A stretch of DNA of 62,137 nt, counting the filler, from Hausera hauseri (lineage: Eukaryota), in the NCBI GenBank assembly GCA_046269625.1. It is 10 parts of 10 records of this genome, joined end to end, with 100 filler letters (N's around TTAATTAATTAA, not from the genome) between each part and the next. Parts side by side here need not be neighbours in the genome. Positions count along the whole stretch, not along the records: positions 22,884 to 27,231 come from JBJURY010623553.1; 9 more parts are not named here. One strand, given 5' to 3'. The translations under genes were made by a program, and so were the position numbers. Each line of letters begins with the position of its first letter. Positions within the stretch are counted from its first letter, which is position 1. The notes under the pieces were generated by a model. That model was not told where the DNA came from, searched no databases, and saw only the letters and a program-made list of their open reading frames with translations. Positions 24,153-24,767 of the stretch are shown one piece after another.

Positions 24153-24767
24153 AAAACAGATGTGGAGCGATATGTCGGCTACCATAATCGAAAACGTAAA
24201 AGACACATATTCGATTACAGGCAAAAATTCATAGTCAGTAAGACACGAAAAAATAATTCTGATGATGACGAGCCTAAGGGAGGAGACGTCATCTCCAGGC
24301 CGAACAGGCACAAACATTACTCAGTTATGAAACTACCATTACCAATATTGCCACCAACGGCACCTATATATGAAGACTGCGAGAAACAATCTATGAGCTC
24401 GTGCCAGACAGACATTTATCGGAAGCCGTTTAGTTTGGAGGATCCTTATGAAGGAACAAAACGTTACGGGATATTGCGTCAAATCCATAAAACGGGAAGA
24501 ACGTCCGCCCCACATCGTCAATCAGCAATCGACGATCACGGTATAATTTACTCGCCTACAGTACCTAGACCAAACGAAACACAATCAATATTTACTAAAA
24601 ACCTTGAGGCGCACCATCTACAAAACCCAGACGTTCAGACGACAGTTAGAAATCAAGGAATAGAAAACACGAATGGCGCGACTAATGAACTATACCCCAT
24701 CGGAGAATTAAGACAACTAATTGACCAGCCAGTCTGAACCACGGAAGTCACCATTAATGGTTACAAA

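Follow-up and report, generated by a model that had tools for sequence, protein, structure and literature searches.

The present locus bears on the question of how errantiviruses with a gB-type envelope glycoprotein (Env), and likewise chuviruses, exit the cell, through two short motifs in the stretch that links Env to the protease (PR) of a retroelement. The window, i.e. the whole stretch of 62,137 nucleotides of Hausera hauseri DNA that was analysed, consists of several contigs with 100-base N linkers between them and contains five decayed fragments of a single family of retroelements (copies 1–5, Table 1), mostly 67–83% identical. In copy 2, a Monjiviricetes/gB-type glycoprotein (PF24664) lies 5' of protease, reverse transcriptase (RT) and RNase H. 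The placement of a gB-type Env between Gag and Pol is seen from PF24664 matches 5' of PR in copies 1–3 and from a Gag zinc knuckle that precedes Env in copy 1, and the order PR-RT-RNase H-integrase was found in copies 3 and 5, both of which reach the integrase, as well as in the relatives P0004 and P0006. Gag, Env and Pol never all occur on a single contig of the window, and copy 4 has no homologous linker. The Env of copy 2 carries a frameshift near position 23361 and lacks its 5' part at a contig gap; comparison of its model gave matches to the glycoproteins of chuviruses at E 2e-11 and weak ones to gB of herpesviruses, at best E 2.5e-3. The protease of this copy has one in-frame stop (25011–25013), and its RT region is 43% identical to that of the intact relative P0004. 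Alignment to the 4.3-kb copy-2 contig recovered 15,748 contig records of run X1, which may itself be the source of the window, most of them less than 95% alike, which makes this a high-copy family. The copies in the window are decayed, and what follows as explanation applies to the element while it was active.

Further coding regions and repeats were observed around these features. Past the integrase, copies 3 and 5 contain a long additional coding region (~54100–56870 on the plus and ~33000–29270 on the minus strand) with an ectodomain and hydrophobic span followed by a DEDD exonuclease-like domain, the latter recognised by eye and giving no Pfam match; in copy 3 this region also has a RING finger (PF13639, E 1.5e-6). 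Copy 1 holds ~1,100 decayed codons between the Gag zinc knuckle and Env (~620–4170, plus strand) with no convincing Pfam match. Other LTR-type retroelement fragments with protease, RT and RNase H matches lie at 11175–12306 (plus), 17300–18800 (minus) and 59300–59920 (minus), and ~13000–16400 is taken up by simple repeats that are very rich in A (AT skew 0.86) and interrupted by several gaps of N.

Table 1 Positions of the features discussed, counted along the whole window.
Feature	Position	Strand	Basis and remarks
Envelope glycoprotein, C-terminal part, gB/chuvirus-type, copy 2	22884–24134	+	PF24664 E 2.2e-29, 7.4e-06
Predicted single transmembrane span	23961–24023	+	Hydrophobic and near charge-free in 120 aligned relatives, then Lys/Arg
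Amphipathic helix past the span	24090–24134	+	Hydrophobic moment 0.95, mean hydropathy 1.35; model helix 244–262
Env tail/linker leading to protease, in frame with Env and PR-RT	24135–24810	+	~225 codons; pN/pS 0.41 over 24135–24761
Acidic block NNSDDDEPKGG	24249–24286	+	Third codon positions invariant too
PTAP, match to TSG101-binding late domain	24354–24365	+	Local sequence; family enrichment
LYPIGELRQL, match to ALIX-binding LYPx3L late domain	24690–24719	+	Local sequence; family enrichment
Aspartic protease, approximate bounds	24811–25100	+	PF00077 E 0.0019; DTGS 24879–24890
Reverse transcriptase, RNase H, further Pol	25476–27231	+	YLDD 26136–26147; interrupted by stops and a frameshift
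Copy 1: envelope followed by linker	4256–6330	+	PTAP 6000–6011; NELY 6318–6329; Gag zinc knuckle 383–424 upstream
Copy 3: envelope and linker, Pol toward lower coordinates	36340–38797	-	PTAQ 36866–36855; LYPNGES
Copy 5: linker, then protease	50046–50710	+	PTTP 50182–50193; LYPNKEL 50496–50516

Read in the frame of Env, the linker codes for protein and is under purifying selection, with a pN/pS of 0.41 over positions 24135–24761 and of 0.16–0.33 in the majority of its conserved blocks. Env, linker and PR-RT of copy 2 share one frame with three stops within 704 codons; the in-frame stops of the linker lie at 24150–24152 and 24735–24737, and the former has a different letter in 8037.5 of 8130.4 depth over 53 contigs of run X1, perhaps the window's own source. 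Compared with copy 2, copies 1 and 3 show zero net frameshift from the membrane segment to position 24470, and stop positions differ between copies. One stop just past the PTAP position is common to copies 1 and 3; since frame conservation continues beyond it, we read it as probable decay. The arrangement recurs in at least 18 other proteins with Env and protease in a single frame, Env and RT-RNase H share one frame in P0004, P0006, P0007, P0009, P0046 and P0091, and a zinc knuckle stands 5' of Env in the same frame in at least five relatives. A FastTree phylogeny of 116 Env ends placed 14 fused rows within one 17-row group (support 95) that includes the window's copy, itself on a long branch. 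The earlier note had left open whether the linker belongs to a glycoprotein tail or to a Pol leader, and of the two, a tail within a single Env-Pol reading frame is the better supported.

Several relatives are unusual in other respects. P0004, P0007, P0012 and P0155, the last with 4,844 residues, contain 2 to 6 D[TS]G protease-like motifs per reading frame, and several of them have another hydrophobic span past the integrase. P0006, an intact knuckle-Env-Pol polyprotein, is filed as a hypothetical protein in a Flavobacteriaceae metagenome bin and is probably eukaryotic DNA.

Analysis of hydropathy and charge gave, as the simplest reading, one membrane span that is probably followed by a cytosolic tail. 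Across 120 aligned sequences, query residues 201–218 are nearly charge-free, Lys or Arg follows at positions 219 (47%) and 222 (83%), and the net charge of 219–238 is +1.3. RT encoded downstream of the span has to face the cytosol or the virion interior. The model consists of a long helix 183–238, a turn and a helix 244–262, and it resembles chuvirus G and, weakly, herpes gB; the second helix has a high hydrophobic moment over 244–258 and is fairly hydrophobic, and may still form a second membrane pass. N-glycan sequons occur in the tails at chance level (80 vs 70 ± 8) and are uninformative on topology. An AlphaFold pLDDT below 50 over most of the linker was dropped as an indicator of disorder, the protease also falling below 50.

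Within the linker, the motifs were found where the earlier note had placed them: PPTAP at 24351–24365 and NELYPIGELRQL at 24684–24719 in copy 2, PPTAP at 5997–6011 in copy 1, PPTAQ at 36869–36855 and NNLYPNGESRQL at 36562–36527 on the minus strand in copy 3, and SPTTP at 50179–50193 and NELYPNKELRQL at 50490–50525 in copy 5. PTAP and LYPx3L are spaced by 112 codons. An exact PTAP is present in two of the four local copies (1 and 2, not 3 and 5); LYP is present in all three copies that span the site and the full LYPx3L in two of these, copy 3 ending with Ser, and the NELY of copy 1 is interrupted by a contig gap. A post-hoc test with 200,000 shuffles of the copy-2 linker produced P[TS]AP in 0.6%, [LM]YPx(1 or 3)[LI] in 1.3% and both at a frequency of 8e-5. 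Both motifs had been said to stand out in an otherwise variable linker, which proved correct for NELYPIGELRQL, an identity island of 0.81 between an upstream stretch of 0.37 and a downstream stretch of 0.43, but not for PTAP: over four copies, the pairwise amino acid identity of PPTAP is 0.70 compared with 0.82 for KNNSDDDEPKGG and 0.84 for LEDPYEGTKRYG, and 47 of 199 four-codon linker windows are conserved as well as PTAP or better. PTAP falls within a conserved block of ~75 codons (24249–24470). Another PTAP, at 30504–30493 in copy 3, was taken as chance and is not kept at the matching position of copy 5.

We therefore turn to the tails of relatives. Among 1.84 billion proteins searched, 329 matched, and the best 150 of these 329 were taken further. 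In a resulting set of 157 proteins, 148 match the Env profile and 134 reach the membrane end, 19 of them with a protease behind (query included) and 115 without. The fused set comprises 15 tails, the query and three near-duplicates having been left out, and the stand-alone set comprises 104 tails after removal of 11, namely nine tails shorter than 20 residues and two with unrelated-looking ends; the latter set includes fragments and insect genomic copies besides viruses. Composition-preserving shuffles (2000) served as controls. A hold-out set of 14 new proteins was obtained with an ectodomain-only query.

Among the matches listed, 10 of the 15 fused linkers between Env and protease contain [LIVMF]YP, where shuffles gave 0.8, and so do 44 of 104 stand-alone tails (shuffled 3.5); the form with a further hydrophobic residue one to three positions on occurs in 8/15 (0.34) and 37/104 (1.5). 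In the hold-out set, 10 of 14 tails carry the YP motif (shuffled 0.7), the shuffled value for the YP-hydrophobic form being 0.28, and none of the 2000 shuffles equalled the counts of 8/15, 37/104 or 10/14 for the YP-hydrophobic form. The tyrosine is strict, neither Phe nor Trp substituting for it, and it is flanked by a hydrophobic residue at −1 and by Pro at +1. Per 1000 residues, the motif is found 5.5 times in tails, 0.12 times in ectodomains and 0.67 times in Pol, where the pattern lies about twofold over shuffle (8/112 blocks vs 3.4). Hydrophobic-PY was at chance (1/104 stand-alone tails among the matches listed), and the looser control P-hydrophobic-Y, which overlaps true sites, was raised (9 vs 2.8). 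The tails did not bias the search: their contribution to the score is 0.6 bits for carriers of the motif and 1.0 bits for non-carriers. Among the relatives, YPxnL spacings are short in some cases and long in others, as they are, by the account given in part of PMC8402826, among known ALIX ligands.

The results for the second motif are more divided. P[TS]AP is present in 15 of the 104 listed stand-alone tails (shuffled 0.71, maximum 4 in 2000), with four PTAP anagrams at chance in the same tails (0–2/104), and it occurs in one of the 15 listed fused tails (shuffled 0.04; reached by 83/2000 shuffles) and in one of the 14 hold-out tails (reached by 172/2000). The 17 PTAP carriers are not explained by near-copies, since the tree requires 17 changes to account for them. 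PPxY was not significantly enriched (1/15 fused and 5/104 stand-alone tails among the matches listed), and none of the three motif types was found in 7/15 fused and 27/59 complete-looking stand-alone tails of the same listed matches. In 9 of the 12 listed tails that carry both motifs, PTAP lies 5' of the YP motif. The overlap among the matches listed (12 both, 4 PTAP only, 33 YP only, 70 neither) gave a Fisher p of 0.0017, but significance was lost with tree-based independent pairs (median p 0.375, eight pairs, low power). Ten motif carriers were looked up; three are named chuvirus proteins with both motifs in each, and the tail of Wuchang cockroach virus 3 reads LYPIL. As a separate observation, [AP][TS]AP is present in 23/104 stand-alone tails among the matches listed compared with 1.1 in shuffles, A[TS]AP, which we take to be a possible variant TSG101 ligand, adding to the signal. 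Long homologues were absent from a shared-word search and were found by an index-free search, a viral-contig scan with P0002 gave no relative, a PDB sequence search with P0021 no match, a protein-atlas search with the linker no usable match, and an Rfam search a sub-threshold chance match only.

Judged from these patterns in sequence, we regard the feature as real and as more general than first noted, above all for the ALIX-type motif. The late-domain reading put forward earlier is borne out for this motif, which is enriched in fused, stand-alone and hold-out tails; for PTAP it is backed in the stand-alone tails only, the motif failing the flank comparison that the note itself had proposed among local copies and being non-significant in the fused and hold-out tails. 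The explanation we favour, and consider rather probable, is that the Env tail carries an ALIX ligand and an accessory TSG101 ligand that would be used for particle release. It would likely be the Env tail, rather than Gag, that recruits the ESCRT machinery, and the main signal appears to be the ALIX-type motif, with PTAP as an optional helper. The linker would then form the cytosolic tail of an Env-Pol precursor that is inserted in the membrane via Env, a single membrane pass placing both the tail and Pol on the cytosolic side. ALIX is the predicted partner of LYPx3L, and TSG101 that of PTAP in some lineages; the two ligands would bring ESCRT to the budding particle, the neck of which would be severed by ESCRT-III. 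Pol would ride into the particle on Env, and inside it the protease would release itself and free Pol. Such a cleavage would leave LYPx3L near the new tail end, a position also kept in stand-alone relatives.

That the motifs are not on Gag, as had been claimed, rests on five relatives, the window holding only the end of Gag. The 2,846 pre-Env residues of these five Gag-bearing relatives, some of them probably incomplete, contain no PTAP and no PPxY, in agreement with the claim, and two loose YP matches, which are at odds with it; all five have YP in the tail. This bears on the alternative that we weigh first and regard as unlikely but as a serious rival, namely that binding of the motifs to ALIX and TSG101 is real and serves to sort Env to multivesicular bodies, for turnover, surface removal or exosome loading, instead of virion scission. 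All enrichment data fit this equally well, and passages in the literature describe such a use of YPX3L in cellular PAR1 (PMC3341166) and, for the tail of E-cadherin, of P(S/T)AP (PMC9511404). In the part of PMC10121106 that concerns grafted late domains, HIV-1 p6 on a spike tail failed to drive budding, with no detectable particles, and EIAV p9 in this position reached about a tenth of the best construct, both of which are counterpoints to the release reading. In favour of release, an enveloped particle of the five relatives, being without PTAP or PPxY before Env, would need a signal elsewhere, and the two motif types stand in the HIV order in the nine of 12 listed tails mentioned above. It should be added that multivesicular body sorting and particle release are not mutually exclusive.

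We consider it improbable that the linker acts mainly as a Pol leader or Gag-Pol joint, translated from an RNA that bypasses Env through splicing or an internal start, in which the motifs would form a p6-like domain. The idea draws on the acidic block, which lies 5' of both motifs and has a pS of 0.15 compared with 0.54–0.86 in other multi-codon blocks. Third positions are invariant in 8 of 9 codons at 24261–24286 against a background of 0.24 (binomial p 7e-5, ~0.005 over 73 windows), a p value that is optimistic given that the codons of the block are often two-fold degenerate and the copies related. Near-invariant third positions of SDDDEPKGG were seen at matching places in copies 1, 3 and 5, and they may mark an RNA or DNA signal; TTCAG stands directly before the invariant block in three of four copies. 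However, the AG is missing in copy 2, acidic stretches that resemble the block in P0008 and P0010 point to a motif at the level of the protein, and the late-domain motifs of the linker are also enriched in glycoproteins that stand alone with no Pol behind them. The block is possibly a cis-acting RNA/DNA signal or, possibly, a phosphorylated acidic sorting cluster as known from herpes gB tails. We discarded a +1 frame that overlaps the invariant block (MMTSLREE), as it runs for 13–44 codons before ending and diverges after 8.

Very improbable, in our view, is a role of Tyr-Pro as a cleavage site at which the element's own protease frees Pol from Env, with PTAP arising by chance in a proline-rich region. 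YP is present in 13 of 15 fused linkers among the matches listed, the nearest 28–90 residues before the catalytic DTG, and an aromatic residue followed by Pro is a known type of retropepsin site. An LYPAL in the MA/p12 region of MLV, as described in part of PMC8402826, fits as well. Against this, Phe-Pro is not enriched (2/15 vs 1.6 and 8/104 vs 9.2 among the matches listed), and the 15/104 listed tails with P[TS]AP are far above chance. YP is, moreover, equally enriched in stand-alone tails, including those of named chuviruses, and we know of no such protease encoded by chuviruses. That the motif instead acts, without relation to ESCRT, as a YxxPhi sorting signal for clathrin adaptors or has a structural role in gB-type tails is scarcely probable: the commonest family form, hydrophobic-YPx-hydrophobic (30/104 among the matches listed), also fits, and a conserved, unexplored YP(L/I/V)X4L of the alphaherpesvirus gB tail is described in a passage of PMC7232241, but YxxPhi sites that lack Pro at +1 show no enrichment (28/104 vs 24.4 among the matches listed), the element's own motif has Gly or Lys at Tyr+3 and is thus not YxxPhi, tail length and membrane distance vary several-fold, unlike in a folded element, and PTAP would be left unexplained.

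Returning to an Env tail that recruits ESCRT for release, a wider and more tentative proposal is possible. Chuvirus and gag-env-pol gB-type fusion proteins might in general organise budding via an ESCRT-recruiting tail of their own, which would stand in for a late domain on matrix or Gag, and this tail might tow protease, RT and integrase into the particle as Env-Pol or sometimes as Gag-Env-Pol. To our knowledge, chuviruses have no recognised matrix protein. If true, this route would differ from the retroviral assembly by Gag-Pol, the packaging of Pol would be coupled to Env, and natural canonical late domains would be located on a fusion protein and not on Gag or matrix. With the motif in a third to two thirds of tails, a cheap test at the peptide level is available. 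For HIV Gag-Pol, prompt budding is reported, in part of PMC4900648, to keep the protease from firing early, and by analogy prompt budding could restrain a membrane-tethered protease here. A survey of errantiviruses (PMC13524379) calls transmission elusive outside Drosophila, in the portion of its text consulted.

While late domains and the gag-env-pol order are already known, late domains placed between Env and protease were not found among the top-ranked matches in the open-access literature, and neither was any work dealing with late domains in the Env of errantiviruses or in chuvirus G. The single frame may already be described by Sacco et al. 2022 for nematode elements. A term search of bioRxiv 2020.02.15.950899 gave neither 'late domain' nor 'ESCRT' in the portion covered. 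The element resembles the GAG-ENV-POL errantiviruses of Chary and Hayashi (PMC13524379), which in the part of that work consulted combine a Ty3/gypsy-type Pol with a gB-type Env upstream and a zinc knuckle before Env; the terms 'late domain', 'ESCRT', 'cytoplasmic', 'fused', 'in-frame' and 'single ORF' are absent from the main text to the same extent. With the chuvirus (Jingchuvirales) glycoproteins and related Monjiviricetes fusion proteins (PF24664), it shares a homologous ectodomain end and membrane region, and named chuvirus tails also carry P[TS]AP and hydrophobic-YPx-hydrophobic; unlike in the element, however, these glycoproteins stand alone, with tails of mostly 25–110 residues and no protease or RT behind. 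As in HIV-1 Gag p6 (PTAP, then YPXnL) and EIAV p9 (YPDL), the same two motif classes are found in the same order, whereas here they are predicted ligands 112 codons apart that follow the Env membrane anchor and not the Gag nucleocapsid. Recruitment of ESCRT by the tail of a fusion protein has been proposed for hartmanivirus GP2 (PMC6261641), noted for alphaherpesvirus gB (PMC7232241) and engineered in the EABR-spike (PMC10121106); as far as the consulted parts of these papers go, they represent speculation on a single family with non-canonical motifs or artificial fusions. In contrast to these three, canonical PTAP and LYPxnL recur here over the tails of retroelements and chuvirus-like proteins.
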